Positions 1,664-27,933 of a stretch of 36,079 nt of DNA are shown here, one piece after another (within the stretch, counting starts at the first letter, position 1; each line of letters begins with the position of its first letter). This DNA is from a virus. Below the pieces are notes generated by a model. It ran no database searches and was not told the DNA's origin. It saw nothing but the letters and a program-made list of their open reading frames with translations. The stretch lies in IMG/VR virus record IMGVR_UViG_3300009285_000036, positions 1 through 36,079 of that record; one strand, written 5' to 3'. The position numbers and the translations under genes were made by a program.

Positions 1664-1671
1664 ATCTTCTT

Positions 1672-1755: not shown

Positions 1756-1812
1756 TTTTTTATTTAAGTTTATATTTTTTTAGAATAATAGATAAGGACA
1801 TCTTTTAGAGCA

Positions 1813-6687: not shown

Positions 6688-6692
6688 ATTTG

Positions 6693-8732: not shown

Positions 8733-8733
8733 A

Positions 8734-9042
8734 TTAAATTAAGTTACATAAATCCTTGATTGCGTTGATTAAATTATTTTGCGTGGGATTTTCTTCTAAA
8801 AGTTTTTTGATATCCTTAACTTTATCTTTTTTAATTTGTTTTTCTTTCTCATTTTTAGCTAAAGGATTTTCTTCCAAGACTAATTTTTTCTGCCAGTGTG
8901 CGATATAATTTTCTTTTAATTGTTGAAGTTCTTCTGGAGTGGGATCGTAAGAAATAATATAAAACTTGTCTTCGTCAAAACTACCAAGATTTTCACCTCG
9001 CGCGATAATTTGATTATTCCATTTTCGTACTGCAAATTTCAT
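8734..9042 (-). CDS. Hypothetical protein (102 aa)
   Basis: ORF whose start overlaps the stop of the upstream tail-fibre gene by 4 nt (ATGA). Confidence 0.65.
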   Translation of the reverse strand: MKFAVRKWNNQIIARGENLGSFDEDKFYIISYDPTPEELQQLKENYIAHWQKKLVLEENPLAKNEKEKQIKKDKVKDIKKLLEENPTQNNLINAIKDLCNLI

Positions 9043-11396
9043 ACTTGTATATCAATACTTAATCCAGCGTTGCCGTTTGAACCGTCAGTAGCTGTTGTTC
9101 CATAACCATTTCCATGAGTGCCACCAGTTCCGCCACTAACATCAACACTTCCGCTGTCAGTTAATGAAGAATAAACTCGGATCACAATACCACCTGAACC
9201 GGCTCCCCCACCACCCCCACCACCACCCCATGTTGGAGTTGTTCCCTCACCCTGACCACCATTTCCACCATTACCACCTTTTGCTAAAATAGTTCCAGTG
9301 CTAACAATAATACGAGCAAAAATTGTAATTATTCCACCCCCAGCACCTGATCCACCTCCACCACCACCACCTTGTAAAGTACCACCATTCCCATCACCCC
9401 CAGCACCTGATCCACCTCCAGCCGAAGATTTCAAATAATCTCCACTTGGCAAAGTATCAAAAAGTAAATAAGCAGTAATACCATTTCGAGGTTCATTAAA
9501 AACAGTCCCAGTTTTACTTCCTGCTGTTCCTCCTGCATTAGCACTAGCACCACCACCATTACCACCAGCGACTCCAGCAGACCCTAAAGACTTAGCAACA
9601 TCAGTGCCATTATTTCCATCATCCCCACCACTACCACCCGAAGTTCCGCCATTACCTCCAGCCTTTCCTGCCATCCCACCAACCACCGAACCAGAAGCTG
9701 TAGCAGCCCCAGCCGAACCACCAGCCCCTCCTCCAGCTGATCCTACCGCTCCATTTCCACCATTCCCACCACTACAGTTAATTGAATCAGCACTTGAATA
9801 AGTCAAAGTTCCACTAACAAAAATCCTATATCCATTCGTAAAAATTGTATCACCCGAAGTTATGGTTAAATTAGTATAAAAAACATCAGCTGTTAAAGTT
9901 TCATCGCCTGCCGTAGTATGGGCACCGTCTGAACCATCACCAAACCACGATTCGTTGGATAAAGATGAATTATTAACAACAGCGTCAGTAAGAACATTGT
10001 TTTGAACCTGTACCCAAGCCGCGCCACTCCAGCGATAAGGTCTGTTGGCGTCATCACTGTCAAGCCATAAATCGCCCGTTTCACTAGCAGTCGGAGCAGT
10101 TGTTTGAATATAAGTCAAGATTTTAGTGTCAGCAGTTCCTTGGGCCGTGGCGGCGTTTGAGAGAGCCGTGCCGATTGCGTCGTCTTGTATCTCTACCCAA
10201 ACCGCTCCGCTATACCTGTAAATCTTGTTATCATCTGAATCTATCCAATAGTCCCCCGTAACCATTCCTGTACCCGGGGTGGTAGTATTAAAAAATAATT
10301 GATAAATACCACTAGGGATGTTTGTAAGGTTTGTTGTCCAGTCAGCACCAACCGTAGCGTTATCCGCCGCCTTACCAGCTCCAAAGATTTTAGCCCAATC
10401 AGCCACATCAAACTCTGCCGCCACCCAAGCGCTACCACTCCAACGATAAGGTTTGTTGTTGTCATCAGTATCGAACCAGATATCACCGACAGCCTCGGCG
10501 GTTGGAGCAGTGGCAACAAAAAATGAAACGATTTTGCCGTCTGCAGTTGATTGAGCATTATTAGCGGCCGTAAGAGCCGAAGCAATAGCCCCGTCTTGAA
10601 TATCAATCCAAGCCGTACCAGACCACCTATAAAGATTATAGCCATCATCAGAATCAGCCCATAAGTCGCCAGTAGCTTCTGCGGTTGGTGCGGTAGTTTG
10701 AACGAATGTAATAATTTTACCGTCTGCCGTGGCCTGTGCCGTTGCCGCGTTAGCAATGGCAGTCGCAATACCTGAATCTTGAACACTAACCCAAGCACTT
10801 CCAGACCACCTATACATTTTGTTGCCATCATCTGAGTCCAACCATAAATCGCCTGTTTCTGACGCTGTGGGCGCGCTGGCTTGCGTAAAGGTAACAATCT
10901 TCGTGTTAGCGGTAGTTTGCGCGTTAAACGCGTCTGTGAGAGCTTGAGCGATGTCATTGTCCTGTACCTCTACCCAAGCGGAGCCGGAATACCGATAAAT
11001 CATATTATCATCGCTGTCTATCCAATAATCATTCGCGCTCATTCCACTAGCAGGCGCGGTAGCTTGATAATAAATAACTGCCCGGCCAGTATAGGCGGTA
11101 TCTCGAATTGAAGTCCAAACCAGTAAATCACTAGCACGGTAAGGGTGATTACTGTCGTTTGTGTCAATCCAAATATCGCCCTTTTTGTAATCATCAGTTG
11201 GCGCGTCATTTTGATAGAAAGTCTGTCTGCGTAAAGCATTGACTTCTGGTGTTGCTCCTCCAGTGTCAGCCATTTGACTAAAATCAAGTATCTCTGGCAT
11301 TAAACTAGAAACAGTAGGGATGACAAAAACATCCTTTGAAAGTAAATCTGGTAGGGTTTTGTTTTCAATATCAGGCATAGTTACTTTTGAAGCCAA
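9039..11396 (-). CDS. Tail fibre / receptor-binding protein with tandem repeats and a glycine-rich C-terminal domain
   Basis: Seven copies of the G-D-x-W-x-D-S-D-D ... Y-R-W-S-G-x-A-W motif, the central ones about 61 aa apart (roughly 9990-11220). The C-terminal 250 aa are rich in GGNGG and GGSG runs. Confidence 0.85.
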   Translation of the reverse strand: MASKVTMPDIENKTLPDLLSKDVFVIPTVSSLMPEILDFSQMADTGGATPEVNALRRQTFYQNDAPTDDYKKGDIWIDTNDSNHPYRASDLLVWTSIRDTAYTGRAVIYYQATAPASGMSANDYWIDSDDNMIYRYSGSAWVEVQDNDIAQALTDAFNAQTTANTKIVTFTQASAPTASETGDLWLDSDDGNKMYRWSGSAWVSVQDSGIATAIANAATAQATADGKIITFVQTTAPTAEATGDLWADSDDGYNLYRWSGTAWIDIQDGAIASALTAANNAQSTADGKIVSFFVATAPTAEAVGDIWFDTDDNNKPYRWSGSAWVAAEFDVADWAKIFGAGKAADNATVGADWTTNLTNIPSGIYQLFFNTTTPGTGMVTGDYWIDSDDNKIYRYSGAVWVEIQDDAIGTALSNAATAQGTADTKILTYIQTTAPTASETGDLWLDSDDANRPYRWSGAAWVQVQNNVLTDAVVNNSSLSNESWFGDGSDGAHTTAGDETLTADVFYTNLTITSGDTIFTNGYRIFVSGTLTYSSADSINCSGGNGGNGAVGSAGGGAGGSAGAATASGSVVGGMAGKAGGNGGTSGGSGGDDGNNGTDVAKSLGSAGVAGGNGGGASANAGGTAGSKTGTVFNEPRNGITAYLLFDTLPSGDYLKSSAGGGSGAGGDGNGGTLQGGGGGGGSGAGGGIITIFARIIVSTGTILAKGGNGGNGGQGEGTTPTWGGGGGGGGAGSGGIVIRVYSSLTDSGSVDVSGGTGGTHGNGYGTTATDGSNGNAGLSIDIQV

Positions 11397-12871
11397 TGTC
11401 CAAAGACCTCAATCATACGAATCGCCAAAGCATTCGTAGCCGACCCGTTGCTCCAATCAATCTCAATCCGCCAATCATCAACATTATTGATGTTAGGATT
11501 GAAAATCTTTTTAATCGTGCCTGTGTCGTTGGTGTGAGTAATACTTCCAGTTTGACCCTGTTTAGTAATTGATTGATTGCTATTGCCTCGATTATAATGA
11601 ATAAGCAAATCAGCGCGCGCGCCAGTGGCTGTTGGCTCAAAATGAGCAATAACTTTATCAATCATTGAAGTCGCGCAAGAAAACATCAATGACTTAAAAG
11701 CACAATTCACATCATATCCGCTAAACTTGGCTAATTTATAGCTAGTAGCGCCATCAAAAGAAGCGCACATCGGAGTACCAAACGGCGCGGCAAAAGCTCC
11801 GACCGTAGCAAACCCTCCGTCCGCGTGTTGAGAAAATATAGTTGGCATTTCTTCATCCGCGCTTCCCCAAATCCATACTTCACCCGAAGAAATCCAAGCA
11901 ATCATATTGTCGTAGATAATCTTTTGTCCGAAGTTTGGCAAAGAACCTGTAAAAGTACGAAGCGGTTTGATTTTGTTGCCGTCTAATACCCCAAGTTTGA
12001 AACCCCCGCTTGATGAAAGGTCCTGATAAAAAACAAAAATGTTCCCGTCTTTATTTATTAAAGCGCCAAGCCGACCGTAAACGCGCGGATGCGGAAAATC
12101 ATCCCACGAATTAGACACAGTGTCCCAAACATAAATACTGCCCTGATTATTATTTACTCCAGTTAAGTTAGGAAAATTGACTGCCGCATAAATCTTTGAG
12201 TTTTCATAAACCAAATCAACCACTTGCGAACTAGCGGGCAAATCAAGTTCATCAACCGAAATGGTATTGGTGACTGGGTCGTAGTACCCAACATACCTAC
12301 CGTTGCCGAAATAAACAATCCCGTCATCCCCAAGCACGCTAGGATGAGGAGCGTTTTGAAGAGCCGCGAATCCAGTAGGCACGGTCGAACCAAAGTCGTC
12401 ATCAAATGCGTCAGTCGCAAGAGTAAGACGACCCATATCACCAGCACTTCCAGAATGATTATAAAAATAATAAAGATAAGTTCCGTCAGAACAAACACTC
12501 TCTCCGTCTTCGCCAGTTACTGCCGCTTTATCAATCGTGTGAGGATATGAGCCAGCGTTGGCCACCGCAGTAGCTGAAATCTTATAAAGTTTAGCCCCGC
12601 CAATCCCCCACGCTACATCAGCCGAAGTTGGAACATTCAAAATATGCTTAATCAAAGTAGTAACCGCCCCGGCTTGAGTTCCTGCCGTAAGAGTTGCTAA
12701 ACCAGCCCCCTGAGTAATTTTAGTGGGATCAGTAATATCACAATTTTGGATATCGCCAGCGTGATTAGAATTCCCGTAATTTGGGTAACTATTTTTCCAG
12801 AAACTAGGAGCAAAGCCCGGGTAGGGAGCCGTGACAGCAATTCGCCAGCTATTGTCTTTTGAATTGGGCAT
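11381..12871 (-). CDS. Structural protein, beta-propeller-like. Candidate tail nozzle or tubular protein.
   Basis: 496 aa with recurring blade-like segments (IVYFGNGRYVGYYD, IYAAVNF, IYVWDT, IFVFYQD). It sits between the adaptor-like gene and the fibre gene. Confidence 0.75.
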   Translation of the reverse strand: MPNSKDNSWRIAVTAPYPGFAPSFWKNSYPNYGNSNHAGDIQNCDITDPTKITQGAGLATLTAGTQAGAVTTLIKHILNVPTSADVAWGIGGAKLYKISATAVANAGSYPHTIDKAAVTGEDGESVCSDGTYLYYFYNHSGSAGDMGRLTLATDAFDDDFGSTVPTGFAALQNAPHPSVLGDDGIVYFGNGRYVGYYDPVTNTISVDELDLPASSQVVDLVYENSKIYAAVNFPNLTGVNNNQGSIYVWDTVSNSWDDFPHPRVYGRLGALINKDGNIFVFYQDLSSSGGFKLGVLDGNKIKPLRTFTGSLPNFGQKIIYDNMIAWISSGEVWIWGSADEEMPTIFSQHADGGFATVGAFAAPFGTPMCASFDGATSYKLAKFSGYDVNCAFKSLMFSCATSMIDKVIAHFEPTATGARADLLIHYNRGNSNQSITKQGQTGSITHTNDTGTIKKIFNPNINNVDDWRIEIDWSNGSATNALAIRMIEVFGHWLQK

Positions 12872-12873
12872 AA

Positions 12874-13617
12874 TTAGTTCATTGATCTGGCTTTAGTTGA
12901 AATTTGACCTGATTGAGTGCCTGTATTTTCTCGCTTCACATAGAAATTAAGCATCTTTTGAATCTCTAACTCCTTCTCTTGCTCAAGCCCCTGAGCTTTT
13001 GAATACTTATCTTGCGATTTTAACCATTGTTCTGCCGCACCGATAGAAAGAATGTGATGAAATTGTGACGGAAAACGAGGAGTAAGAGCATCTCCAGTCC
13101 CCGCGATAGCCAAATCCGTAAGTCCTGTAACGCAGTAAATCTTCATTCCGTTTGTAATTGTCTGATAAGGAATTGGATCGAGATAAAAATATCCGTTCTT
13201 AACCCACACAACCGGATTATTATACGAACCCTCAATAACATTATCATTAGCAGTATTAGCCAAAGCGCCGTCAATAGATTGTTGTTTTACAACCCGAGCA
13301 ACAACCCAACCATTATCCATGCCAGTATAATTCACTTCAATACGATCAATAGCAAGCATTCCAGTCGGCCACGCGTAACTTTGTGTGGCATCGGTAAGAT
13401 TTTTTAATCCGTTTCCAGTTCCCTCAAGTGTATTATCTTGCCAATCAAAAAGAAGTTCGCCAATTAAGCGAGTTTGAAGTTTGCCCATTTCAAGATTAAG
13501 TAATGCCACGATTGTGGCATCGGCAGGATTATTAACATTGTCTTGAGAATTCGCTTTAAATCTTGTGTAGCCGAGTAAGTCAGTTAGCAACAGACTAGAA
13601 GCAGCACCAATTTGCAT
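12874..13617 (-). CDS. Structural protein. Candidate head-tail adaptor.
   Basis: 247 aa. The function is inferred from position only. Confidence 0.7.
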   Translation of the reverse strand: MQIGAASSLLLTDLLGYTRFKANSQDNVNNPADATIVALLNLEMGKLQTRLIGELLFDWQDNTLEGTGNGLKNLTDATQSYAWPTGMLAIDRIEVNYTGMDNGWVVARVVKQQSIDGALANTANDNVIEGSYNNPVVWVKNGYFYLDPIPYQTITNGMKIYCVTGLTDLAIAGTGDALTPRFPSQFHHILSIGAAEQWLKSQDKYSKAQGLEQEKELEIQKMLNFYVKRENTGTQSGQISTKARSMN

Positions 13618-13621
13618 AGAA

Positions 13622-13786
13622 TTATTTTATTTTATATTCCTTAATAAATTGTTCCGCCCCTTCTTTTGTTTTGGCGTAAGCCTTGATTCGTTCAATCTCG
13701 CCAGTTTTAACAATAACTGGAAATGCTTCTTTCTCTTCAGAATAATCACCTATAAAAATAGTTTTACCTTCTGTTTTTTTCTTCAT
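13622..13786 (-). CDS. Small hypothetical protein (54 aa)
   Basis: MKKKTEGKTIFIGDYSEEKEAFPVIVKTGEIERIKAYAKTKEGAEQFIKEYKIK fills the intergenic gap. It is below the ORF-track cutoff. Confidence 0.45.
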   Translation of the reverse strand: MKKKTEGKTIFIGDYSEEKEAFPVIVKTGEIERIKAYAKTKEGAEQFIKEYKIK

Positions 13787-13787
13787 A

Positions 13788-14834
13788 TTATTTCTTTGAT
13801 TTAAGATTATAAATTATGTTACCTTTACATTTTTCAACTAGATAAGCGATAATATCGCTCACTCGATAATCATTGTAAGTAAGCGCATAGACAATATCTT
13901 TCCACTCTTTACCAGCCAAAGTCGGCTCGGGTCGTAAAGATTTGGCAGGAAAAACTTTATACAAGGTTTCCCACAAGACCATTCCGTTTCGGATCTCTTT
14001 TGAATAATCTCGGTTTACATCAACCAAAGCATCATCGCTAGTTGGTTTCTTTACATTTACCTCATCAATAGAAATCCACGCAGTAGGAAAAACTGGAAAG
14101 CCGCTTGGAAGATAACAATATCCCGCATCACCCCAAAACTCACCAAACATATTAGCACACTCAAGTTGTCTTTTAGTATCATTGTCATCATACCCAGTCG
14201 CAACGATATTATGTCCCCACTTCTCCGCGCCTTTTGGTAAAGGCAATTCCCCTCTGCGATTAGGTTGAGAGTTGGTATAAAACACAGTCCCAATTGATAC
14301 TGGTCGCTTCCAACGCCAAAGAGCCGTCTTGATTCCTTCGTAATTCTCAAACGAACCACGAGTAATCATCACTGATTCTTGCGCTTTGTATTTAAGAGCG
14401 TGTTTGGCTGTTGATTCAGAAACGATTGGCATTCCTCTTGGATCATCTGGCACAGAAATTGACGGATATTCCCATTCGGTTGCCACTCCACAAACAGTCG
14501 GAATATAAGTCCCTCGTGAGATATAAGTCCCTCTGAATCCGTAGCCGTCAAGTTTTTTAGCTTCCGCGTAAATGAAAAGTCCTGACAGATCGGTGTATCT
14601 GTCATTTTCTTTCATCTCGTTATATTCAACGAGGTACGCCCCCGCAAATCCAACACAATCAAAGTTTTTCTGAGTCGCAATCGCGGGCATATGCTGTCGG
14701 ATAGAAAAAGTCTGCGGTCTTTGAGAAGTATCACCACCAGTCGTATTATCTTCACTTGGTACTCCAACAAGGATCGGGTCAATTTCTGCTCCACCACCTT
14801 TGTAATTGTCACGAACCCTTATAAAAGAGAACAT
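13788..14834 (-). CDS. Papain-like (C1-type) cysteine peptidase. Candidate lysis enzyme.
   Basis: QKNFDC (Cys60), WGHNIVATGYDD (His208) and ANMFGEFWGDAGYCYL (Asn228) mirror the papain QxxxxxC, HAVxxVGY and NSWGxxWGxxGY blocks. No signal peptide is present. Confidence 0.8.
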   Translation of the reverse strand: MFSFIRVRDNYKGGGAEIDPILVGVPSEDNTTGGDTSQRPQTFSIRQHMPAIATQKNFDCVGFAGAYLVEYNEMKENDRYTDLSGLFIYAEAKKLDGYGFRGTYISRGTYIPTVCGVATEWEYPSISVPDDPRGMPIVSESTAKHALKYKAQESVMITRGSFENYEGIKTALWRWKRPVSIGTVFYTNSQPNRRGELPLPKGAEKWGHNIVATGYDDNDTKRQLECANMFGEFWGDAGYCYLPSGFPVFPTAWISIDEVNVKKPTSDDALVDVNRDYSKEIRNGMVLWETLYKVFPAKSLRPEPTLAGKEWKDIVYALTYNDYRVSDIIAYLVEKCKGNIIYNLKSKK

Positions 14835-14845
14835 AAGTTTTGTAG

Positions 14846-15058
14846 TTATTTTTTAGTTCCGTAAGTGTTATTAAGGTATTTTGTAACCTGTGAAATTACT
14901 GCTGTAAGAATAATAACCGCAAGCCCATACCACTGAGGAGAACCAGTTAAGTCGAGCGCTCCCAAAAACTGTGTGAGCGATGTAAGTAAGAAAGCCAATG
15001 TGCTTGCTCCCACTACCCACAAACCAGCGAATAATCTTTTTTTGAATTCTGGATTCAT
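14846..15058 (-). CDS. Holin-like two-TM protein
   Basis: MNPEFKKRLFAGLWVVGASTLAFLL ... WYGLAVIILTAVISQV ... with a basic C-terminus. The longest ORF extends to 15103 but would overlap the upstream gene by 35 nt. Confidence 0.55.
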   Translation of the reverse strand: MNPEFKKRLFAGLWVVGASTLAFLLTSLTQFLGALDLTGSPQWYGLAVIILTAVISQVTKYLNNTYGTKK

Positions 15059-15068
15059 ATAATTAGAA

Positions 15069-15422
15069 TTATTTAAGATTAGTATATTCAAGGGCTGAAT
15101 CAATTAGATCTGTTTCATTTTCAACAGATAGATCTGGTTGCCAATTGCCTTTCTTATCTATCTCAACCTGAAGTATTCCCAAAAACTCCTGACCCTCATC
15201 AGACCACAAAAACATACCAGTCTTATCCGCCTTATATTTATTTACTCTATCCTCTTTGAAAGTGTCGTAGTCTTTTGTCTTGGAGAAACATATTTTGCTT
15301 GTTTCTGTCTTGACCACCTGAGCGTCAAACATACAAACACTATCCGCAGCCACCACTCCAAAAGCAGTGGCTGCGATTCCAAGACCTATAACCCCATTTT
15401 TGATTGAAGTTTTTAAGTCCAT
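15069..15422 (-). CDS. Exported or membrane-anchored small protein (117 aa)
   Basis: N-terminal hydrophobic segment GVIGLGIAATAFGVVAA followed by a polar domain. Confidence 0.6.
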   Translation of the reverse strand: MDLKTSIKNGVIGLGIAATAFGVVAADSVCMFDAQVVKTETSKICFSKTKDYDTFKEDRVNKYKADKTGMFLWSDEGQEFLGILQVEIDKKGNWQPDLSVENETDLIDSALEYTNLK

Positions 15423-15426
15423 AAGT

Positions 15427-15726
15427 TTATAATAGATGAGTCTTTACCCAATCGTAGGCTATCGTGGAAATGATTGATCCAAGAAACAATGCAATGGCTG
15501 AGTAGGTTCCAAACTTTGCTACAAAAACAAGACGCCAGTTTTCAATTACTTTCAATCGTTCATCGAGTCCTTTTTCTAACTCACAAATCCGTTTATCCAA
15601 CCGATCAATAACTGAATCAACCTTTTTGGTATATTGGATCAAGTCACGACGTAAGTATTGTATTTCCATTTGTAACAACTCATCTTTTTGTTGATGTGGC
15701 GAATCCATATTTAGATTGATTCCCAA
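15427..15726 (-). CDS. Coiled-coil protein with a C-terminal TM anchor (99 aa)
   Basis: Heptad-like charged N-terminal part, then FGTYSAIALFLGSIISTIAY near the C-terminus. Confidence 0.6.
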   Translation of the reverse strand: MGINLNMDSPHQQKDELLQMEIQYLRRDLIQYTKKVDSVIDRLDKRICELEKGLDERLKVIENWRLVFVAKFGTYSAIALFLGSIISTIAYDWVKTHLL

Positions 15727-18700
15727 TTAGTAGTATCAAACGCGCAATACTGAACATTCTGACCAGCAGGAAGCGTGGTAGCAGTATCTGCGCCAGCACC
15801 CAAATTATCACCACTAGCAGGGAAAATTTGAAGCGTATTAGCGCCATTGTTGATGACTGTCTGACAAAGTCCAACACTGGCAGTAATGAGAGTAACTGTG
15901 TCATTCGTAGTAGCAACAGTCGCCACTTCGTTAATTTCAGCAGTGAGTGCGCCCTGACCTTGTGTTTGAGTAACGGAAGCGGTAAGTCCAGCATTGACAT
16001 CTCGAACAATCAAAGCGTCATCACCCATTGAAAGGTTACCACCAGCCAAAGCAAGACTATTCCCAGTCTGTGTCAAGGTTACATCATTATTATCCCAATT
16101 TATCACTCCGCCTTCAGCTAGGAACAAATCCGACCATTCGTTGGTTGAAGCAACACCAATCGCCCAACCGTCATTAGTGGCAGGTTTGATTACGCCCCCA
16201 AATTCAGAGATACCCTTTCCTACTTTCAATGCCACATCAGCATCAGCGTTCATCGTTATATCAATACCTTCATAAGTAAGGCTACCCGCTGTTTTCGTAG
16301 CTGTTCCGCCAACAATTTTTAACCCATAAGCCTCAACAGAAGCACCGGCGAAATTAACCGTGGCATTTGGCATATTCACAACATACCCACCCCAAATATC
16401 AGTACCTGTCGCTGTGTTTTGTTCAAGTGTTCCTGCACCAGAAACATCAACACCGTATCCAACATATTGATAAACACCCGCACCTGTGTTTGTTACCGAA
16501 GGCAAGTCAACCGCGTTGGCAAGAACACTGAAACCCGTAGCTGTTAAATTAGTACGGAAGTCAAAGTTAGTTCCTTTTAGTGTGCCCGCAAGAGCTGTTG
16601 CGCCAGTATAACTAGCACCTACTAATGTTCCTTGCGTGAAACTAGCAAGGTCAAAACTTATGACTGTTGTATTTGTGGGAACACCCTGAAATACTAACTG
16701 CCCCGCAAATCTTGACCTACCGTCTGAATAGAAAGCATAATTATTTGTGTTCAGATTGTTGGCAGGCTTGGCATAAATTGCGGCAGTGGTTAAACTACCG
16801 ACACCAGCCACATACCCAACACTGGATAAATCTGACTTAATGCCGTAATAATTGGATGTTCCTGAGGCCGGTCCCGTTAATGTCCAAGTTGGAACAACCC
16901 ATAAATCAGACACAGTGGCACTAGCATCGGCAGTTCCGTTTGTTCCCCTTTGCAACTGGATTGTTGCTGTGAGATTAGCGGTTGAGGAATTATCAAAGGT
17001 ATTCATTCCCGTTGCTCTAATAGCCAAGTTTTGCGAGTCTGTATCAGTAGCGGCGTGGATTCTTAATGCATTGACAGTCGTAGTTCCAACTGAAGCTGTA
17101 ACTGAAACGCTACGCATATCAATCTGTGCGCCATTGTATGTAGCTGAACCCGCGCCACCCATAGCGGTAAGCACCATATTCGGGATAACCTTGAAATCAA
17201 CCATTGTATCGTTGTTGGATTGAAGAGTGATCGCGCCAGATCTTCCTAATTGAACTAATGCCGTATTATTTGTGTATGAAGTTCCCGCGTAGCCCAAACT
17301 CATCATCTGTGTACCTGTCGTGCTTGCCGAATGATTAAACAACATTAAACCATTTTCAATCCAAAGTGAACGATAGGAAATATCACTATCTGTCCCAGCT
17401 TCCAAGTGAAGTCCCGTAACTGTTAAACTTGAAGTATCGGTTGTAGAAGTCAATGATGCTGAAGATATATTCGCTAAATTGTAGTTCCATATATCAGCCG
17501 TGGTAATCTTTGTCAGTGCGGAAGTTGGCTTGATATTAAAATCAGTTATTCCAGTATTGCTTCCACTTGTTTGGGTCAACGCACCTGTGCGAGTAATGTC
17601 GGCAATAATATCTCCTGTGGTGTAAGTCGTTACGCCATAGTTAATATCCAACGGTTGGATAGGTGTCGCGCCTGAATTAGTAATATCTAACTCATTATTC
17701 ATTGAAAGCGTAGTAATCGCTCCCAGCGCTCCCGATGTTTCGGTTACTGTTGCGTTTTCTATTTTAGTTCCAGTTGAATTGTAGCGAAGTAATCTTGTAT
17801 CGGTTAAAGCGTCGATATGAACATCGTCAACTCTGTCTGCGTTTAAGTTTGTACTTTTAGTTGTTGAAGTAAGTACAAAAGGAGGAGTGCCATCTGCTAA
17901 AGTGGAAGTAATTTGACCAGTCGTTGAAAGTGAAGTCAGGGTTCCAACACTTGTAAGAGATGAAGCAACAACAGAAGAACCAAGAGTCGTGGCATTCAAA
18001 ACAGAAATATTATTGATCTTATAATCAAGACCAGATGAAATGTTCCACGCTTGATTTGAAGTCCAGTTATCATTGGCATTATCCCAAAGGATTGTTTTAT
18101 CAGTTGCGCCCTTGAGTTCAATTCCTCCGCCATCAGCAGTTATATCTGTTGGAGTAGTAACATCACCCATTACGATATTTTTATCATCAACCGTAAGAGT
18201 AGTTGAATTAATCGTCGTGGTTGTGCCATTAACAGTGAAATCGCCCGGAATAATAACGCCCTGTGCCGAAGTACCCAAAGTCAGACTGCCGTCAGCGTCA
18301 GCCGTGATAAAGGCGGTTGGTACACCAGCCACCTGTTGCTTGAAAGTCACATCAATATCCTCTGTGCCAGACCCCACATCAGTCGCCTGAGCGTCAATAG
18401 AAGCATTAACATCATTGTCGGTAGCGTTTGTATCCTTGAAACTCAAAGTCGGGTTTATAGAAGAAAGTGTAATGTCACCCGAGCCAACTGTTACGCCATT
18501 GATTGTTCCAGTAACGCTAAGATCGCCAGATTGGTTGAGCGTCATTAGTTGTGTATCGCTATTATTATCCCAGCGCGAACGATAAGTGTCTGTTCCTATA
18601 TCTGCCTCATTATAAACTTTCATTGCTCGATTTCCAGCCGAAGTTTCGCCAATCATCGAAAGTTTGTTTGAATCATTACCAGCACCGGAAGCAACAGAGT

Positions 18701-19868
18701 TTATTCGAACCGCGCCGCCAAAATCAGTTGTACCTTGAACAATGGTCAAAGCGCTGTCAGTATCAGCGTTCATATCAACATACAATCCATACTGCGCGCC
18801 ACTTGTCGCCACACCACCAGTTACTTTCACGCCATAAGCGTTAATTGTCCCTGTAGTTGCCGTAGTAGCAGGTAGTGTGACACCATACCCAGTCCAAACA
18901 TTTGTACCAGCTAAAGTTGTTTGAGCCAAAGCTCCGCCAGTTACATTATGTCCAGTATAAACATAAGTGCCTGCTCCAACATTCGTAACAGCTGGCAAAG
19001 TAACAACCGTACCAACTGAACCAAACCCAGTAGCCGTAACATTAGTGCTAAAATCAAGATTGATTCCAGTTTGACTAGCAAGTTGAGAAGTAGCCCCACC
19101 GTATGCCATATTGATTACCGTACCTTGTTGCCAACCCTCTAACTGATAATCAGAAAGAATTGCCGTGGGCGCGGCAATATCAACCACAGTAGAAGCCGAA
19201 GTGATATTTTTAGTTACCACCGCATTTCCTAAATCATCAACCGTGAATAAATCATTACCTAAATCTTCACCAACCTTGAAATAATATCTATCAGTCACGC
19301 CGTCAACATAGTTCCAAAGCCAAATCCAATTTTCATCTGCTGAATTGTTTATACTTCGCATTTGAATCACGCCTGAAGTATGATTAGCTCCCGTAGCAGT
19401 TGGTTGAATCTGTAAGTTCCCATCAAGCCCGATACTCCCATCATTTACATATAAACCATACCGAGTACCGAGCGACATATTTGTACCTTGAATAGGAGCG
19501 CCGTCAATGTAAAGAGAGGCAACATTATTGATAACAGAAGCTCCAACGGCATTTAAGGTAGGAGGTAAAATGTTGACAATCCTTTCCCAAGCAAAGTTAC
19601 CAGTTTCCCAAGTCATCTGGTTGGAATAATCAATGTTGAGTCCCGCAGCCTCTGAAGAAGCGGTAATCCCTGAATGATCCGCCCCATTAATACTCAAAGC
19701 CACAGGCACACCGTCGGTTGTTGCTGTTTGCTCAATGATAAGATTTCCGTATTCATCGAGTAACGCGTATCCGCCAGAATTGTAGGCCATTGCGACTCCA
19801 CTTCCAAACAACACAAACGCCCCAATGGTTGCTATTCCAAGCAGTAGTTTTTTGATGTTTTTCATCAT
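15711..19868 (-). CDS. Giant (1385 aa) Thr/Gly/Ser/Asn-rich repetitive protein with an N-terminal Sec-type signal peptide
   Basis: MMKNIKKLLLGIATIGAFVLFGSGVAMA-Y has the classic n, h and AxA c regions. A duplication of about 150 aa spans aa 245-388 and aa 1077-1227. A further domain is shared with the 340-aa neighbour. Confidence 0.85.
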   Translation of the reverse strand: MMKNIKKLLLGIATIGAFVLFGSGVAMAYNSGGYALLDEYGNLIIEQTATTDGVPVALSINGADHSGITASSEAAGLNIDYSNQMTWETGNFAWERIVNILPPTLNAVGASVINNVASLYIDGAPIQGTNMSLGTRYGLYVNDGSIGLDGNLQIQPTATGANHTSGVIQMRSINNSADENWIWLWNYVDGVTDRYYFKVGEDLGNDLFTVDDLGNAVVTKNITSASTVVDIAAPTAILSDYQLEGWQQGTVINMAYGGATSQLASQTGINLDFSTNVTATGFGSVGTVVTLPAVTNVGAGTYVYTGHNVTGGALAQTTLAGTNVWTGYGVTLPATTATTGTINAYGVKVTGGVATSGAQYGLYVDMNADTDSALTIVQGTTDFGGAVRINSVASGAGNDSNKLSMIGETSAGNRAMKVYNEADIGTDTYRSRWDNNSDTQLMTLNQSGDLSVTGTINGVTVGSGDITLSSINPTLSFKDTNATDNDVNASIDAQATDVGSGTEDIDVTFKQQVAGVPTAFITADADGSLTLGTSAQGVIIPGDFTVNGTTTTINSTTLTVDDKNIVMGDVTTPTDITADGGGIELKGATDKTILWDNANDNWTSNQAWNISSGLDYKINNISVLNATTLGSSVVASSLTSVGTLTSLSTTGQITSTLADGTPPFVLTSTTKSTNLNADRVDDVHIDALTDTRLLRYNSTGTKIENATVTETSGALGAITTLSMNNELDITNSGATPIQPLDINYGVTTYTTGDIIADITRTGALTQTSGSNTGITDFNIKPTSALTKITTADIWNYNLANISSASLTSTTDTSSLTVTGLHLEAGTDSDISYRSLWIENGLMLFNHSASTTGTQMMSLGYAGTSYTNNTALVQLGRSGAITLQSNNDTMVDFKVIPNMVLTAMGGAGSATYNGAQIDMRSVSVTASVGTTTVNALRIHAATDTDSQNLAIRATGMNTFDNSSTANLTATIQLQRGTNGTADASATVSDLWVVPTWTLTGPASGTSNYYGIKSDLSSVGYVAGVGSLTTAAIYAKPANNLNTNNYAFYSDGRSRFAGQLVFQGVPTNTTVISFDLASFTQGTLVGASYTGATALAGTLKGTNFDFRTNLTATGFSVLANAVDLPSVTNTGAGVYQYVGYGVDVSGAGTLEQNTATGTDIWGGYVVNMPNATVNFAGASVEAYGLKIVGGTATKTAGSLTYEGIDITMNADADVALKVGKGISEFGGVIKPATNDGWAIGVASTNEWSDLFLAEGGVINWDNNDVTLTQTGNSLALAGGNLSMGDDALIVRDVNAGLTASVTQTQGQGALTAEINEVATVATTNDTVTLITASVGLCQTVINNGANTLQIFPASGDNLGAGADTATTLPAGQNVQYCAFDTTNWESI

Positions 19869-19887
19869 ATTATTGAGTTATGTTATT

Positions 19888-20910
19888 TTAAGATGGAGTC
19901 AAAGTTCGAGAGATTTCTCTCCAAAAACTCCCGTCAAGAATAAAAGTTATTGTATTACCCGCATTAAGAGTAGCATTAACGCTACCTGTTAATTTTAATT
20001 GAGCATAAGTTCCAGCCGTAGCGTGGCCAAAGACTGTTCCTGCCGATCCGACTTTCAAGACCAAGAACGATCCGTCTTGCCAACCAGTAGAATCAATAGT
20101 GTTGACCCGCACCGCCCCAGTAAGAGCAAAGAAGTTTCCATCATATCCCATTTGAATACTGTTTGCCGTTGCGACATCCGCGCCTTTCTTCCACTGTGCT
20201 CGTCCTTGATGTTGTACCGTACCGTTAGACTCAACCGTGAAAATTGTAGCGACATCATTATTTGTGATTTTCAAACGATAAGTATCCGTAGTCGCATCAC
20301 CTTCATTGTAAAGTTTCATCTGTCGTTCACCTACCGAAGTTCGACTATTCACTGCGAAATAATTAGAATCACTTCCTGCAGAGGCTCCGACTGGCGCCAT
20401 TGCGAATGGCACATAAAAGATCGTTCCGCCCGATCCAATATAAGCCCTGTTTACACCGCCAGTATTGAAGTACAAAATATCTCCACCATCCCACGATAGA
20501 CCTGTATTTGGATCTGATATACCTGCCAATCCAGGAGCAGCGCCAGTGCCACTTGATACTTTTGTCTGTCCGCCTGCAACATTGGTATCAACCATAAAGA
20601 TATCGCCAGCGTCAGCGTCTTTTCGTACCAATAATGCCTCCGTATTAGTAACATCAATAATCACTGTGCCTGAAGTAATTCCACCTATAACAGCAGTAGT
20701 TATGTCAATTTCATTAAACCAACCTTTGGCAATTCGTGTAGCAGAAGAACCCAATGTCCAAGTGGCGTCGAGTGGAAGCAATGTCGTACCTGTTCTTTTC
20801 CAAAACCTCCAAAAATCAGAGGAATCGGCAAGTGCGGGCTGAACACTAACAAGAAGTCCAAGACAGATAACGCCCGCCAAAATTATCTTCTTGAGTATAT
20901 TTTTAATCAT
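19888..20910 (-). CDS. 340-aa protein with a Sec-type signal peptide, partly paralogous to the 1385-aa protein
   Basis: MIKNILKKIILAGVICLGLLVSVQPALA-D. Residues 181-236 (DSNYFAVNSRTSVGERQMKLYNEGDATTDTYR...) align with aa 398-455 of the 1385-aa protein. Confidence 0.8.
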   Translation of the reverse strand: MIKNILKKIILAGVICLGLLVSVQPALADSSDFWRFWKRTGTTLLPLDATWTLGSSATRIAKGWFNEIDITTAVIGGITSGTVIIDVTNTEALLVRKDADAGDIFMVDTNVAGGQTKVSSGTGAAPGLAGISDPNTGLSWDGGDILYFNTGGVNRAYIGSGGTIFYVPFAMAPVGASAGSDSNYFAVNSRTSVGERQMKLYNEGDATTDTYRLKITNNDVATIFTVESNGTVQHQGRAQWKKGADVATANSIQMGYDGNFFALTGAVRVNTIDSTGWQDGSFLVLKVGSAGTVFGHATAGTYAQLKLTGSVNATLNAGNTITFILDGSFWREISRTLTPS

Positions 20911-20925: not shown

Positions 20926-21255
20926 TTAACCGATTTTTGGATCACGCCATCCAACTCTCACACTAACAGCGACATCTGCTGAACCAGCACGGATTAGTTT
21001 AATTTTTGATAACGCAATTCCTGTAATAGTCTTCTTTTCACCCAATACCAACAATTCACCAAGTAAAGCGGTTGGTGTCGTTCCGTCAGTGGCAATGCGG
21101 ATATCGCCGTCCTCACACAACAAAATCACTTCATCTAAATCTTTCGGCAAGCTCTGGGCGGCTGAAGCGGCTGTGTCAATCAGAGAAGATAACAAAGTTG
21201 CTGTGGTTGTAACGGTAATTTTATGACCCGCGATAGCAATAGTATATTCCTGCAT
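20926..21255 (-). CDS. Hypothetical beta-rich protein (109 aa from the internal Met)
   Basis: The start at MQEYTIAIAG avoids overlap with the upstream gene. The longest ORF extends to 21324. Confidence 0.6.
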   Translation of the reverse strand: MQEYTIAIAGHKITVTTTATLLSSLIDTAASAAQSLPKDLDEVILLCEDGDIRIATDGTTPTALLGELLVLGEKKTITGIALSKIKLIRAGSADVAVSVRVGWRDPKIG

Positions 21256-21976: not shown

Positions 21977-23161
21977 CTAGACTGTTGAAACACGCACATC
22001 GACCAAGAGGTCTTTGTTACGCAACCAAGTCTTATAACCAAATACAGTCCAAGCGTGAAGATAGCCTGAACCTTCAACACCAAGAGCTTTCTGGTTAAAG
22101 CCAAGTTTCGGAGCGCTTTGAAGAGCAAGTTCAGTCGCGTTTTTCTGTCCGAACACGCAGTGAACAAGTTCGAGTGACCACGGATCAGCCGTATCAGAAG
22201 TGGCCACTACCAGTTCACCACCTCCAACGTGCTCAATACCCAGATAAGTGGTTCCATCTGTGGCAACGATACCTTCAAGCAAAACCTGATTAGCCAAAGT
22301 TACAGCCACAAAGGTTCCCGAAACTGAAGTACCTGGGGCATTAAGAGAGGCTACGACATTATCTAGCGTAGTCGCAACATCGGTCACTGATTTGATATCA
22401 CCGGCATTAGTTGGCGTACCCGTTTCAAAAGTGAAAGTTACACCGGCAATAGTGATTGTTTGGGTATCTGAAGGAAGGTTAGCTGGAGTCCAACGACCAG
22501 TCCAAGTAAGGTTGGCTGATACATAGATATCAAAACCAAAGCGTGAACCGACAAAGCCGTTATCCAAAACCTTGTCACCAAGCCGAGATCCTACGCCACC
22601 AGTATAAACTTGAAGATTTTCAAGAACTGATGGTGAGATTACCGCAAAACGATTATTTTGTCCGACGTGCAGGTTATTTAATTTCTTGCCCGCAAGTGAG
22701 AACAGTTTATTCACATTTGAGGGAGTAACTGCCACTCGTACACCGCTAGTTCCGCCAAAATCCCCGTCTGAAACTGTTGAGGTTGCCTGATCGTAATCAG
22801 ACAATATCGCGGCATCAATACCGCGCTTCAAATCTTCTACGAAATCACGCCCATATTCACCCATAAAATCGTAACCAGATTGAAGTTTTGCAACTGCGTC
22901 AATATATGCTGGCACGACCTTATATTGATTGATTGAAAGTTGCTCGTTCGTACCCGTGAGGTCTTGGGCTGAAAAGTCGGTACCCGGAGTATAAGTCTGC
23001 ATCAAGTGGCGTGAGCGATACGGTTTATTGATTGTATCAACGCCATCAAGACTTTCGGGTGACTTTTTACAGATCTGCATCGCAACAAGAGATTTCTCAA
23101 GTTCCAACTGCATTTCTCGTGCCCAGACCTCTTTGTTTAAGTCTGTCAATGTGTTAGCCAT
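21977..23161 (-). CDS. Major capsid protein
   Basis: 394 aa, directly after the scaffold-like gene and before a strong hairpin. The N-terminus MANTLTDLNKEVWAREMQLELEKSLV is typical of capsid proteins. The call rests on synteny and size. Confidence 0.75.
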   Translation of the reverse strand: MANTLTDLNKEVWAREMQLELEKSLVAMQICKKSPESLDGVDTINKPYRSRHLMQTYTPGTDFSAQDLTGTNEQLSINQYKVVPAYIDAVAKLQSGYDFMGEYGRDFVEDLKRGIDAAILSDYDQATSTVSDGDFGGTSGVRVAVTPSNVNKLFSLAGKKLNNLHVGQNNRFAVISPSVLENLQVYTGGVGSRLGDKVLDNGFVGSRFGFDIYVSANLTWTGRWTPANLPSDTQTITIAGVTFTFETGTPTNAGDIKSVTDVATTLDNVVASLNAPGTSVSGTFVAVTLANQVLLEGIVATDGTTYLGIEHVGGGELVVATSDTADPWSLELVHCVFGQKNATELALQSAPKLGFNQKALGVEGSGYLHAWTVFGYKTWLRNKDLLVDVRVSTV

Positions 23162-27620: not shown

Positions 27621-27933
27621 CTTGTTTCTTTTCAGGAGAATAACTGCCCTTTAATCTATAAGCTGTATCAAGATATTTATGTCTAACGGCATAATCTTCA
27701 ACTAACATTTTTCCTTCAATTCTTGTTGCTTTCAAACCCTCTTCGTGTACTTTTGCTAATTTCTTATCAGGAAAATGCTGTTCCATAAGTTCAGCCCACC
27801 CCTTGCTTTGAGTAACTTGTTTAGGATGTGTAGCTGTTTTTGCGCTATAACCAACCTTCCGCATCGCGGCAGAAACGCTTCGACTGTTTTCGACTACCTC
27901 TTTCACTAGCCTCTTTTGTCGCTCTGTAGCCAT
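27502..27933 (-). CDS. terS: Terminase small subunit
   Basis: 143 aa with an N-terminal HTH-like segment (NSRSVSAAMRKVGYSAKTATHPKQV), directly upstream of terL. Confidence 0.7.
   Translation of the reverse strand: MATERQKRLVKEVVENSRSVSAAMRKVGYSAKTATHPKQVTQSKGWAELMEQHFPDKKLAKVHEEGLKATRIEGKMLVEDYAVRHKYLDTAYRLKGSYSPEKKQVEVRDLSNYDNETLSKLAGLEEKSDGGISEEGTGEEEIA

Follow-up and report, generated by a model that had tools for sequence, protein, structure and literature searches.

Conserved, predicted Sec-type signal peptides on modular fibre proteins of a groundwater phage with a probable patescibacterial host

Introduction

The exported accessory proteins of tailed phages include the receptor-blocking and exclusion lipoproteins Llp of T5 and Ltp of TP-J34, Lom and Bor of lambda, and Sec- or SAR-exported endolysins; the gene for Llp, which masks the receptor, adjoins that for the receptor-binding protein. 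To our knowledge, every cleavable tailed-phage leader belongs to a lysis, exclusion or conversion protein. Such accessories resemble the proteins described here in being phage-encoded and, as we propose for the latter, in using host Sec and acting on the infected-cell envelope. They differ in being small globular proteins, lipoproteins or enzymes, none of them a fibre of 340-1385 aa with receptor-binding modules, and the fibres lack the lipobox of Llp/Ltp-type lipoproteins. PblA and PblB of Streptococcus mitis phage SM1 are phage fibre proteins that act as adhesins on the host surface, but they are leaderless, reach the surface via holin and lysin, and stay virion components. Virion fibres, tailspikes and capsid spikes share with the present proteins T/G/S/A/N-rich repetitive shafts, mosaic module exchange and structural-operon position, as well as the β-sandwich tip fold (e.g. 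the tailspike gp83 of Acinetobacter phage Solidus, the capsid spike of Pseudomonas phage Pa223, and CBA120 TSP4). By contrast with the present proteins, which have conserved leaders of the cleavable type, they are made without a signal peptide and their assembly is cytoplasmic.

In the mosaic adhesive trimer (MAT) fibres of Bdellovibrio bacteriovorus (Caulton et al. 2024, PMC10769870), a signal peptide is followed directly by a conserved β-rich domain, then by a long trimeric shaft resembling those of phage fibres, and last by exchangeable C-terminal tips, some of them novel β-sandwiches; the phage fibres share this order in outline. MAT fibres are exported, displayed on the cell surface and bind other cells. 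The likeness is one of domain order, and surface display of the phage fibres is something that we infer. MAT genes are also chromosomal genes of a two-membrane predatory bacterium, whereas the phage fibre genes lie in a lytic late operon beside putative lysis genes. Concanavalin/LamG genes of CPR phages, which share the ecological setting and proposed host group, have been discussed as auxiliary metabolic or cell-adhesion genes (PMC11310336, PMC12911398); the terms 'signal peptide' and 'tail fiber' are absent from the main text of both papers. Export of fibre proteins is without described precedent in tailed phages, none having been found in the literature searched.

Results

The window, i.e. 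the whole stretch of 36,079 nucleotides analysed, is a complete 36-kb phage genome of groundwater origin. Its late genes include the following block and flanks.

12874-13617, minus strand: SU10-type tail adaptor (flank), first gene of the tail module
13622-20910, minus strand: seven-gene block, co-directional, between the capsid genes and the SU10-type adaptor gene
20926-21255, minus strand: 109-aa conserved protein (flank), ATG at 21255, always preceding the fibre gene in the clade
21977-23161, minus strand: major capsid protein (flank), weak PF19821 match

The seven consecutive genes listed in an earlier note on this DNA are all present as ORFs on the minus strand at the positions claimed. 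The sizes given for six of them hold (340, 1385, 117, about 70 and 54 aa, and the papain-like peptidase), the exception being a 99-aa protein that is more likely to be of 93 aa. The adaptor matches PF24175 (9.8e-10, 39.6 bits; cut-off 27 bits). Related phages keep the block, as the note had proposed to check: it is present in L001, L003, L005 and L087, with capsid gene identities of 74, 57, 56 and 31%, respectively, and 44-61% identity in the 109-aa flank protein (alignment A7). The break in gene order is thus not a one-off, a position after the capsid genes being normal for the group. In about 25 more distant marine loci, a fibre gene of the leaderless kind is preceded at about 1 kb by a distantly related capsid gene (22-27% identity), and about 45 marine loci carry such a fibre gene.

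Within the set of 24 late genes, hydrophobic segments that are N-terminal or lie in small proteins occur only in the seven-gene block; the hydrophobicity threshold is also passed by borderline internal stretches in a 785-aa protein (residues 687-705) and a 1624-aa protein (residues 169-187). A Shine-Dalgarno (SD) site is present in one of the 24. As the phage appears to use no SD sites, the first ATGs of both large genes are credible; each lies 15-19 nt past the previous stop behind the usual A/T-rich stretch, that of the 340-aa gene being non-SD like those of other genes. Together the two genes occupy 5.2 kb, about 14% of the 36-kb lytic genome.

19888-20910, minus strand: 340-aa exported fibre protein (predicted), with signal peptide, conserved N-module, short shaft and β-sandwich tip
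20827-20910, minus strand: signal peptide spanning residues 1-28 of the 340-aa protein, cleavage predicted at ALA↓DSS, read from sequence
20581-20826, minus strand: N-module after the leader (alignments A1, A2, A4, A6)
19891-20223, minus strand: C-terminal β-sandwich tip of the 340-aa protein, residues about 230-340
15711-19868, minus strand: 1385-aa exported mosaic fibre protein (predicted), with its own signal peptide and without the N-module
19785-19868, minus strand: signal peptide spanning residues 1-28 of the 1385-aa protein, cleavage predicted at AMA↓YNS, read from sequence

The 340-aa protein begins MIKNILKK-IILAGVICLGLLV-SVQPALA↓DSS and the 1385-aa protein MMKNIKK-LLLGIATIGAFVLF-GSGVAMA↓YNS. 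Both leaders combine a K-rich n-region, a hydrophobic core of 13-15 residues and an ALA↓D or AMA↓Y site, so that, as read from the letters, the first 28 residues of both fibres show all the sequence features expected of a cleavable Sec signal peptide; the textbook Sec-type leaders that had been noted on both large proteins are borne out, and a third protein, that of 117 aa, also has a signal-peptide-like N-terminus. Residues 2-17 of the 340-aa protein are helical in an AF2 model built with a 67-row alignment.

The leader pattern (net-positive n-region, hydrophobic core with H10 >= 2.2, small-residue site) is present in all 31 collected homologues, which come from four or more phage lineages; 28 of them have Ala at -1. 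The 31 leader sequences are not alignable; what is kept is the n/h/c pattern with small residues at -3 and -1. Recurrence in every homologue with unrelated leader sequences places the pattern beyond chance, and that so many relatives conserve it, as a pattern, speaks for real export. The predicted leader is a conserved property of the family and, because leaderless relatives carry the same shaft motif, an added, selected feature of these fibres.

The N-module has the pattern FW.F.KR.G...W.LGSS..RIAKGWF..LD, then IDVTNTEALLVRKDADAGD, and is β-rich by AF2 at low confidence. Homologous N-termini occur in L001, L003, L005, L087 and L073, and wherever the module stands at the N-terminus of a protein a leader precedes it. 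The RIAKGWF form is present in SU10-adaptor podovirus-like genomes (the 36-kb phage, L073) and also in L065, the head genes of which match a tape-measure-bearing lineage (L010). The L008/L010 lineage has a tail module consisting of a major-tail-like gene, a tape-measure-like gene and then a conserved 277-aa gene. The position of the leader-fibre cassette differs within this second (L065/L010) lineage; in L073, L067 and the clade of the 36-kb phage it adjoins lysis-type genes. L065 encodes six consecutive leader-bearing proteins, its leader-bearing fibre genes forming one cassette with two leader-bearing Laminin_G_3 proteins.

Consistent with the fibre fold that the earlier note had proposed to look for, the tip of the 340-aa protein, modelled by AF2 with pLDDT >95, is a β-sandwich that matches a tailspike depolymerase (24qj) and the capsid spike of Pa223 (9ny6_C) in the PDB (Foldseek, E 1.7e-5) and 84 viral models; there is a weak fold match to the tip of Bdellovibrio Bd1334 (E 0.68). 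It has 1833 relatives in a representative library and a match to Pfam PF25692 Phage_depo_C (8.8e-5) that, at 23.3 bits, is just below the 25-bit cut-off. The 1385-aa protein contains internal duplications (241-388/1072-1228, 720-829/834-944 and 888-958/985-1054), a repeat module at residues 17-160 that is also found in P0005, P0012 and P0090, a fibre motif common to cyanophage proteins at residues 538-626, and a C-terminal region (residues 1291-1385) that is 49.5% identical to the tip of a protein from the tail module of siphovirus MW202657. In L087, which has a single fibre, that protein joins the N-module of the 340-aa protein, two copies of the repeat of the 1385-aa protein and the tip of the 340-aa protein. 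Both proteins are mosaic, modular phage-fibre proteins.

The other five genes of the block are as follows.

15427-15708, minus strand: 93-aa protein, coiled-coil region at the N-terminus and a single membrane segment at the C-terminus, XhlA-like topology
15069-15422, minus strand: 117-aa protein, signal-peptide-like N-terminus, VVA↓AD or VAA↓DS
14846-15058, minus strand: 70-aa protein, two membrane segments and basic C-terminus, holin-like
13788-14834, minus strand: 348-aa papain-family (C1) cysteine peptidase, leaderless, probable endolysin
13622-13786, minus strand: 54-aa soluble protein, just upstream of the adaptor gene

The best reading of the small membrane proteins together with the peptidase is a lysis cassette, of the single-membrane-host type, embedded in the late operon. 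The 93-aa form (ATG at 15708) is likelier than the 99-aa form from a TTG start, which has its hydrophobic segment at residues 68-90; it has no significant match in Pfam and further family searches, and its 61-aa counterpart in L001 has a weak PHROG 'hemolysin' match (0.0067). No family match was found for the 117-aa protein (Pfam, PHROGs and further family searches). The 70-aa form (ATG at 15058) is likelier than an 85-aa form from TTG; its holin family matches are below significance, and its C-terminus resembles that of an 84-aa protein encoded in L087 immediately ahead of the adaptor. The peptidase appears to be an intact papain-family enzyme and a probable endolysin (PF00112, 9.7e-4; PHROG 16701 'peptidase', 6.7e-9; PDB 3OIS cysteine protease, 1.8e-6), with candidate catalytic motifs at Cys60 (DCVGFA), His208 (GHNIVA) and Asn228 (NMFGEFWG), which we take to be the triad from the pattern of the papain family; homologues occupy the same position in L001, L003 and L087. 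In L001, a 67-aa counterpart of the 54-aa protein stands before the adaptor gene. Reading of the ORFs by eye brought up no candidate spanin. The five genes would form a unit separate from the fibres, in which a tail-anchored protein with a coiled coil and a small exported one are joined by a holin-like protein of two segments and, as endolysin, the leaderless peptidase; the 54-aa protein makes up the fifth. Thus, of the exported and membrane block described earlier, the fibres stand, while the small membrane proteins and the peptidase need not belong with them.

The host is probably a member of the ultra-small Patescibacteria. A related fibre (44% identity) is encoded on a 38-kb contig of the Patescibacteria single-cell genome AH-259-L07, and patescibacterial rpsL, rpoC, secA and dnaJ have the same non-SD, A/T-rich start context as the phage genes. 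The sequences derive from groundwater and from contigs that bear 'Hain-...-01um' labels, presumably the 0.1-µm filter fraction of Hainich groundwater.

Discussion

The best explanation, in our view with about an even chance of being correct, is that Sec exports both fibres, that they lose their leaders by cleavage and that they are then shown on the infected-cell envelope; in architecture they would match the MAT fibres of Bdellovibrio. Late in infection they would be threaded through the host Sec translocon, cut by signal peptidase I after Ala28, and would fold and trimerise outside the cytoplasmic membrane. As the host is probably a patescibacterium with a single membrane and an S-layer, they would end in or on the envelope, tips outward, and would not join particles assembling in the cytoplasm. 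The predicted order of signal peptide, conserved N-proximal module, repetitive shaft and swappable β-sandwich tip matches that of surface-displayed MAT fibres, so the likeliest job would be binding a cell-surface ligand from outside; the phage's own receptor may be masked on the infected cell and debris, or the infected cell stuck to neighbouring cells. Occurrence of the N-module across different phage types may count for an envelope destination over a virion docking site. So may the shifting site of the cassette within the L065/L010 lineage, its neighbourhood with lysis-type genes, and the leader-bearing giant proteins encoded by patescibacterial chromosomes. However, the LGSS..R...W part of the N-module is a generic fibre motif, also found inside ordinary leaderless fibres, so the module says less for a dedicated envelope anchor than might at first appear; by eye there is no lipobox or sortase signal, and no wall-binding-domain family is matched. 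Also against display, the genes occupy the part of the late structural operon that in leaderless relatives encodes a presumed virion fibre, a positional orthology that favours a virion role, the 5.2 kb is a large investment for a non-virion accessory, and the benefit of adhesins shown minutes before lysis is not evident.

The main rival proposal, possible though rather unlikely, sees in the exported, cleaved proteins the peripheral receptor-binding fibres of the phage itself, which would collect between membrane and S-layer or wall and join finished capsid-tail particles only once the holin ruptures the membrane and the two compartments mix, just before the wall yields. Export could keep long fibres away from a cytoplasm that is only about 0.2-0.3 µm across, or give folding conditions that the cytoplasm does not offer. 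In vitro, fibres of T4 attach to particles spontaneously, and the Acidianus two-tailed virus completes morphogenesis outside the cell. On this proposal the operon position and the genome share, with the six-protein run of L065, would be as expected; every module and tip is an ordinary virion-fibre part, the fibre genes adjoin the holin-like and endolysin genes that would trigger mixing, and the trait recurs in unrelated phage lineages that apparently share an ultra-small host group. Yet it is without precedent in tailed phages in the literature searched, the N-module is found in phages of different tail types with no obvious common docking partner, the genome already has a candidate tail fibre (the 785-aa repeat protein after the nozzle-position gene), and the L008/L010 lineage has its own tail module.

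It is improbable that these are ordinary virion fibres assembled on heads or tails in the cytoplasm, the hydrophobic N-terminus being unused for export and forming instead a buried trimer core or an element that inserts into the membrane during infection. Fibre folds, structural-operon position and the existence of capsid-spike proteins with a similar tip (9ny6_C) would suit this, but a structural helix should keep its sequence, not just the n/h/c pattern and small residues at -3 and -1, leaderless homologues show the segment to be dispensable for a fibre, and a K-rich N-terminus with a hydrophobic core would engage SRP or Sec regardless of any other role. More doubtful still is secretion of the fibres as egress factors that loosen S-layer, capsule or wall in aid of the adjacent lysis cassette, functionally akin to LysB of mycobacteriophages. 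Holin-like and peptidase genes do adjoin the fibre genes in several lineages and the tip belongs to a family named after depolymerases; against this, no catalytic domain was found in either fibre (Pfam, PHROGs, NCBIfam, PDB sequence search, fold search), the 340-aa protein is too short for a β-helix enzyme domain, and the sole depolymerase-family match is limited to the non-catalytic C-terminal sandwich, a binding/tip domain, so that the depolymerase role once suggested becomes unlikely. An annotation artefact, with true starts downstream (TTG codon 11 of the 340-aa ORF, M27 of the 1385-aa ORF) and no signal peptides, is extremely improbable. These starts are those of the public calls P0001 (330 aa) and P0004 (1359 aa), and the M27 codon has a GGAG 5 nt upstream, but neither the phage nor its likely hosts use SD sites, the same contig also has a full-length 340-aa call, the upstream in-frame stretches are perfect leaders in two adjacent genes and in 31/31 homologues, a TTG start would leave the hydrophobic core intact, and the internal Met near the cleavage site is not conserved. 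The leaderless public calls look like caller artefacts, and the GGAG like chance. Surface display, an unusual virion route and an uncleaved anchor, the fates named in the earlier note, still appear to be the right list.

The 36-kb phage is not alone in this feature, which characterises a group of phages with links to Patescibacteria and groundwater; among them are some with entire cassettes of predicted signal-peptide proteins, LamG lectins included. Patescibacterial chromosomes themselves encode leader-bearing giant proteins with the same IDV..EA.LVRKD.D.GD motif beside rpoC and rpsL. With leaders on the fibres of more than 30 relatives, the fibres appear to be exported from the infected cell, not built into particles in its cytoplasm.

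Gene order of the window

The window begins and ends with an exact 77-base direct repeat (positions 1-77 and 36003-36079), and is thus a complete, circularly closing phage genome of ~36.0 kb. The late genes run along the minus strand from ~29.6 kb down to 1.8 kb and include the seven consecutive ORFs described in an earlier note, all of which were found in place between the capsid genes and an SU10-type adaptor gene.

Late genes of the window, in late-gene order (all on the minus strand)
First gene: truncated C5 methylase
After the C5 methylase: small and large terminase subunits (PF03237, 1.2e-17)
After the terminase: portal, scaffold and major capsid genes
Between the major capsid gene and the block: three small conserved genes
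19888-20910, block: 340-aa protein
15711-19868, block: 1385-aa protein
In the block: tail-anchored coiled-coil protein, 93 aa from its ATG
In the block: two-membrane-segment protein, 70 aa, topology fitting a holin, charged C terminus
In the block: papain-family peptidase, leaderless, candidate catalytic motifs with Cys60, His208 and Asn228
Directly after the block: SU10-type adaptor (PF24175, 39.6 bits against a 27-bit cut-off)
After the adaptor: 496-aa gene in the nozzle position
9039-11396, after the nozzle-position gene: 785-aa repeat protein
After the 785-aa protein: 679-aa coiled-coil-rich protein
1813-6687, end of the late operon: 1624-aa protein with an LPD38 'large polyvalent protein' domain (3e-31)

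The 1624-aa LPD38 protein probably lies inside the virion or is ejected from it. In the 785-aa protein, a candidate for the tail fibre or for a needle, a ~45-aa unit (..TGDLW.DSDD.N..YRWSGSAWV.VQD..) is repeated in tandem at least six times and a long Gly-rich tail comes after it; the PHROGs matches of this protein are exclusively to families of unknown function. Sequence searches of the PDB with the 1385-aa, 785-aa, 496-aa and adaptor proteins gave nothing useful, and a promoter and terminator scan returned background-level or intragenic matches only. A 6.2-kb piece of the window was found, identical, in a groundwater metagenome; among 50,697 phage records, there was no close cultured relative of the window, nor were cultured relatives found with its capsid gene, the 340-aa protein or a leaderless marine fibre as queries.

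Two further ORFs are worth recording. In the region 26127-27933 (minus strand), the large-terminase ORF as listed begins with TTG at 27620 and overlaps an upstream 143-aa ORF by 119 nt; the true start of the terminase gene is probably further downstream. A CheY-like 132-aa ORF (44-442, minus strand; receiver domain PF00072 at 1.3e-6, just under the cut-off) partly overlaps the terminal repeat and lies in a stretch of unusually high GC content (0.45, against about 0.33-0.40 nearby).

Leader sequences of the two large proteins

The signal peptides previously proposed for both large block proteins are borne out by inspection, in that a lysine-rich start, a hydrophobic core and the expected cleavage sites can be read in each. 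The 340-aa protein begins MIKNILKK-IILAGVICLGLLV-SVQPALA/DSS and the 1385-aa protein MMKNIKK-LLLGIATIGAFVLF-GSGVAMA/YNS (the slash marks the predicted cleavage site). In both, as in Sec/SPI leaders, three Lys and zero acidic residues lie ahead of the core; the h-regions, IILAGVICLGLLV and LLLGIATIGAFVLF respectively, are uninterrupted hydrophobic runs of the length taken for such leaders (~7-15 residues), with Kyte-Doolittle 19-residue means of 2.34 (340-aa) and 2.13 (1385-aa); and the c-regions, QPALA/D and GSGVAMA/Y, have small residues at -3 and -1, an upstream helix breaker and no Pro at +1. The 340-aa leader forms a helix (residues 2-17) in the AF2 model. A 19-residue hydropathy scan of all 24 late proteins confined N-terminal or small-protein hydrophobic segments to the block, where the 117-aa protein has a third leader-like N terminus; outside it, borderline internal stretches alone were seen, in the 785-aa and 1624-aa proteins.

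Other types of export signal were looked for in the two proteins. The lipobox L-[AS]-[GA]-C with Cys at +1 is absent, there being no Cys at or near either predicted site and zero Cys in the mature 340-aa protein, and no lipoprotein, prepilin or sortase signals were apparent by inspection. Receptor-masking or exclusion lipoproteins of the T5 Llp type are small and carry a lipobox, and the proteins here are large fibres. PADLOC gave no match to the block as a whole, and NCBIfam nothing useful.

The leaders are retained well beyond the window. In a table of 31 distinct homologous proteins, compiled with a crude parser, a net-positive n-region and hydrophobic core are universal (31/31), Ala occupies -1 in 28, usually as A-x-A then Q or D, and A, V or S occupies -3 in 25, while the leader sequences themselves are not alignable. 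Conservation of pattern, not of sequence, is the signature of functional signal peptides. Both leaders are very probably real, and Sec export of both fibres, as judged from their sequences, is likely; with cleavage, it is the best-supported step of the scheme considered below, because sequence rules and conservation both bear on it.

Start codons and gene calls

Public records give shorter versions of both proteins. The 330-aa record P0001 starts 10 codons downstream in the 340-aa ORF, with loss of positions 20881-20910, and the 1359-aa record P0004 starts 26 codons downstream in the 1385-aa ORF, with loss of the leader (19785-19868). A GGAG precedes the P0004 start, which is judged to be chance. 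The downstream starts are rejected because an SD-like motif is present in only 1 of 24 late genes, starts following A/T-rich 'ataat' stretches; because the first ATGs of both fibre genes lie 15-19 nt past upstream stop codons; because a full 340-aa call exists on the same contig as the 330-aa one; and because the 'extra' codons read as perfect leaders in both of these adjacent genes and in all homologues. That the true starts are downstream, such that no leaders are made, is therefore hardly credible. Dual-start isoforms, i.e. exported and cytoplasmic forms, the latter from M27, were also considered and rejected, the internal Met being not conserved in homologues and the phage ignoring SD sites. 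Callers that expect SD sites probably mask the leader trait in SD-less genomes, and, since standard callers cut the leaders off there, it is probably under-reported in public databases.

Fibre architecture

The fold searches proposed earlier place the 340-aa protein among tailspike and capsid-spike proteins. Its AF2 model (67-row alignment) has a C-terminal β-sandwich at pLDDT above 95 and an unmodelled middle; the conserved module of ~80 aa that follows the leader (the N-module), part of which is a generic fibre motif, is β-rich at low confidence (pLDDT 50-70 only). Foldseek matches include 24qj (a tailspike depolymerase), 9ny6_C (the Pa223 capsid spike) and 7rfo (CBA120 TSP4), together with 84 BFVD viral models. 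The tip scores just below the cut-off for PF25692 (23.3 against 25 bits) and belongs to a family with 1833 members in a 1.84-billion-protein library.

The 1385-aa protein is built of duplicated modules. Its N-proximal repeat is common to other fibre proteins, its central motif recurs in cyanophage fibre or decoration proteins, and its last 95 residues are 49.5% identical to the tip of a leaderless tail-module protein of siphovirus MW202657; an AF2 model of residues 1-460 (5-row alignment) was unusable (pLDDT 33.7). A tip common to both window proteins was considered and rejected, BLAST giving one internal module only (174-236 versus 392-454, 41% identity).

In the related loci L001, L003, L005, L087 and L088 the N-module is common and the downstream parts differ, as for swappable tips. 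L087, a 37-kb Hainich contig, recombines modules of both window proteins, its single 528-aa fibre comprising the N-module of the 340-aa protein, two copies of the 1385-aa repeat and the 340-aa tip. The same contig has an insertion at 4940-5893, where the conserved gene of the 109-aa type and that of the leader-bearing fibre are separated by one for a leaderless 317-aa protein, which matches no family and has no counterpart in the window.

Distribution among related and unrelated phages

Relatives were gathered by capsid-based and fibre-based scans. The block is kept in L001, L003, L005 and L087, whose capsid proteins are 74%, 57%, 56% and 31% identical to that of the window, which answers the earlier question of its retention. 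The same fibre N terminus is present in unrelated phages (L073, L065, L067, L074, L089-L101), with a variant in L006-L010, and an exhaustive HMMER search added the protein records P0017, P0030, P0039, P0047, P0068, P0078, P0089, P0140, P0144 and P0156. The N-module alignments A2 and A4 proved too divergent to serve in locus scans, an N-module profile gave one match only in a 5.8-billion-protein index, and viral contigs yielded no close relative of the N-terminal part of the 1385-aa protein.

At ~45 marine loci the fibre gene has the same IDVTNTEALLVRKDGD shaft motif, begins MFGSMGQ... and is leaderless; at ~25 of these, a distantly related capsid gene (22-27% identity) lies ~1 kb upstream. It follows that this phage group normally has a fibre gene behind the capsid genes and that the leader is a trait added in one subset. 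The block had been thought to break the canonical gene order; a fibre gene in this position is, however, usual here, and the block as such is kept in the relatives named above.

Leader-bearing genes are also clustered in other lineages. In L065, six consecutive ones fill ~7 kb (9905-17244) between capsid-proximal genes and a connector gene, and encode two Laminin_G_3 lectins (7e-36, 2e-22) and one protein with the same tip, in this case above the PF25692 (Phage_depo_C) cut-off. L008 (2815-7056) and L010 (9441-12751), of a tape-measure-bearing, i.e. long-tailed, lineage, have three to five between the connector genes and the major tail gene, among them one for a 741-aa protein that carries a Fib_succ_major domain and one for a 138-aa protein that is conserved. 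Head genes are common to L065 and the L010 lineage, and the L065 cassette is at a different position. LamG/concanavalin genes of CPR phages have been reported as possible adhesion genes (PMC11310336, PMC12911398), in papers whose main texts contain neither 'signal peptide' nor 'tail fiber'.

Putative lysis genes of the block

The coiled-coil protein, the two-segment protein and the leaderless peptidase accompany the fibre gene in L001, L003 and L087, and in L067 an M23 peptidase, with membrane proteins on its flanks, is the equivalent of the window enzyme. These genes constitute a putative holin-endolysin cassette of the type of single-membrane hosts, a reading inferred from topology and position because holin/XhlA family models gave insignificant matches only (best 0.0067). 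No candidate spanin stood out when the ORFs were read. To our knowledge, C1 peptidases are not an established type of endolysin. In Arthronema virus TR020 (L083), a distant cyanophage with a capsid ~24% identical, a small 'cysteine protease' gene and a 'disulfide isomerase' gene (8851-10178) lie between the capsid and tail-tubular genes, which is where the papain-like peptidase is encoded in the window.

Likely host

Four lines of evidence, consistent but indirect, point to Patescibacteria. A 38-kb contig of the single-cell genome 'Patescibacteria group bacterium AH-259-L07' encodes a 363-aa leader-bearing fibre (44% identity) in the order capsid gene, fibre, two-segment protein, leader-bearing protein, nozzle-like gene, SU10-like adaptor. 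This contig (L073) and the window have in common with patescibacterial chromosomal genes (rpsL, rpoC, ssb, secA and dnaJ, read on L078 and L081) a lack of SD sites and A/T-rich start contexts. The relatives come from groundwater, some contig names carrying 'Hain-...-01um', which we take to denote the 0.1-um filter fraction of Hainich groundwater. Finally, the same fibre motif recurs in leader-bearing proteins, 1043-1735 aa long, that are encoded on L078, a patescibacterial chromosome contig. A cluster of five leader-bearing proteins lies there at 1184-12630, alongside rpoB, rpoC, rpsL, rpsG and ssb; one of them, of 1735 aa, has two copies of the phage-fibre motif IDV..EA.LVRKD.D.GD. A cyanobacterial host was rejected, the window having neither HIP1 sites nor tRNAs.

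Possible destinations of the fibres

In the scheme proposed, both fibres would be exported by Sec and their leaders then cleaved, after which they would be displayed in or on the envelope of the infected cell. Envelope display, to which about even chances are given, is favoured because the domain order appears to be that of a known type of bacterial surface fibre, because the N-module is common to phages of different tail types, because the cassette moves within one lineage, because the likely hosts have similar leader-bearing proteins, and because the exported proteins known to us from tailed phages are, every one, non-virion. The surface fibres in question are the mosaic adhesive trimer (MAT) fibres of Bdellovibrio (PMC10769870); PDB entries for these cover C-terminal parts only.

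The main rival, less probable but a serious possibility, is that phages of ultra-small Patescibacteria export their own peripheral fibres by Sec, and that virions acquire these fibres only beyond the cytoplasm, once the membrane has been ruptured by the holin; the extension of this reading, that some lineages export whole sets of lectins and fibres, is similarly tentative. In its favour are the position of the fibre genes in the structural operon, their positional orthology with leaderless fibres and the investment of 14% of the genome. Such a route may have evolved several times in response to hosts with a cytoplasm that barely exceeds a fibred virion in width. In the accepted view, assembly of tailed-phage particles takes place wholly in the cytoplasm; the only phage proteins known to us to use the export machinery of the host serve in lysis, exclusion or conversion. 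That the proteins are ordinary cytoplasmic fibres is improbable. Less probable again are exported egress enzymes: family-model and PDB sequence searches found no catalytic domain in the 340-aa or 1385-aa protein, and the depolymerase role entertained earlier is likewise disfavoured.

Targeted literature searches turned up no account of tailed-phage fibre proteins with leaders. The parts, i.e. phage fibres, Sec leaders and MAT-like surface fibres, are known; what is new is their combination in the late operons of lytic phages, and the recurrence of leader-bearing fibres across phage lineages. Envelope display and extracytoplasmic joining are both directly testable, by metaproteomics and cryo-tomography of groundwater samples. 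The latter, if true, would be categorically new, being a previously unknown extracytoplasmic step in tailed-phage assembly. A conserved family of fibres with export signals, present in several phage lineages with a seemingly common host group, the little-known Patescibacteria, suggests either that adhesive fibres are used by lytic phages to remodel the infected cell's surface, or that there is a new route of virion assembly.
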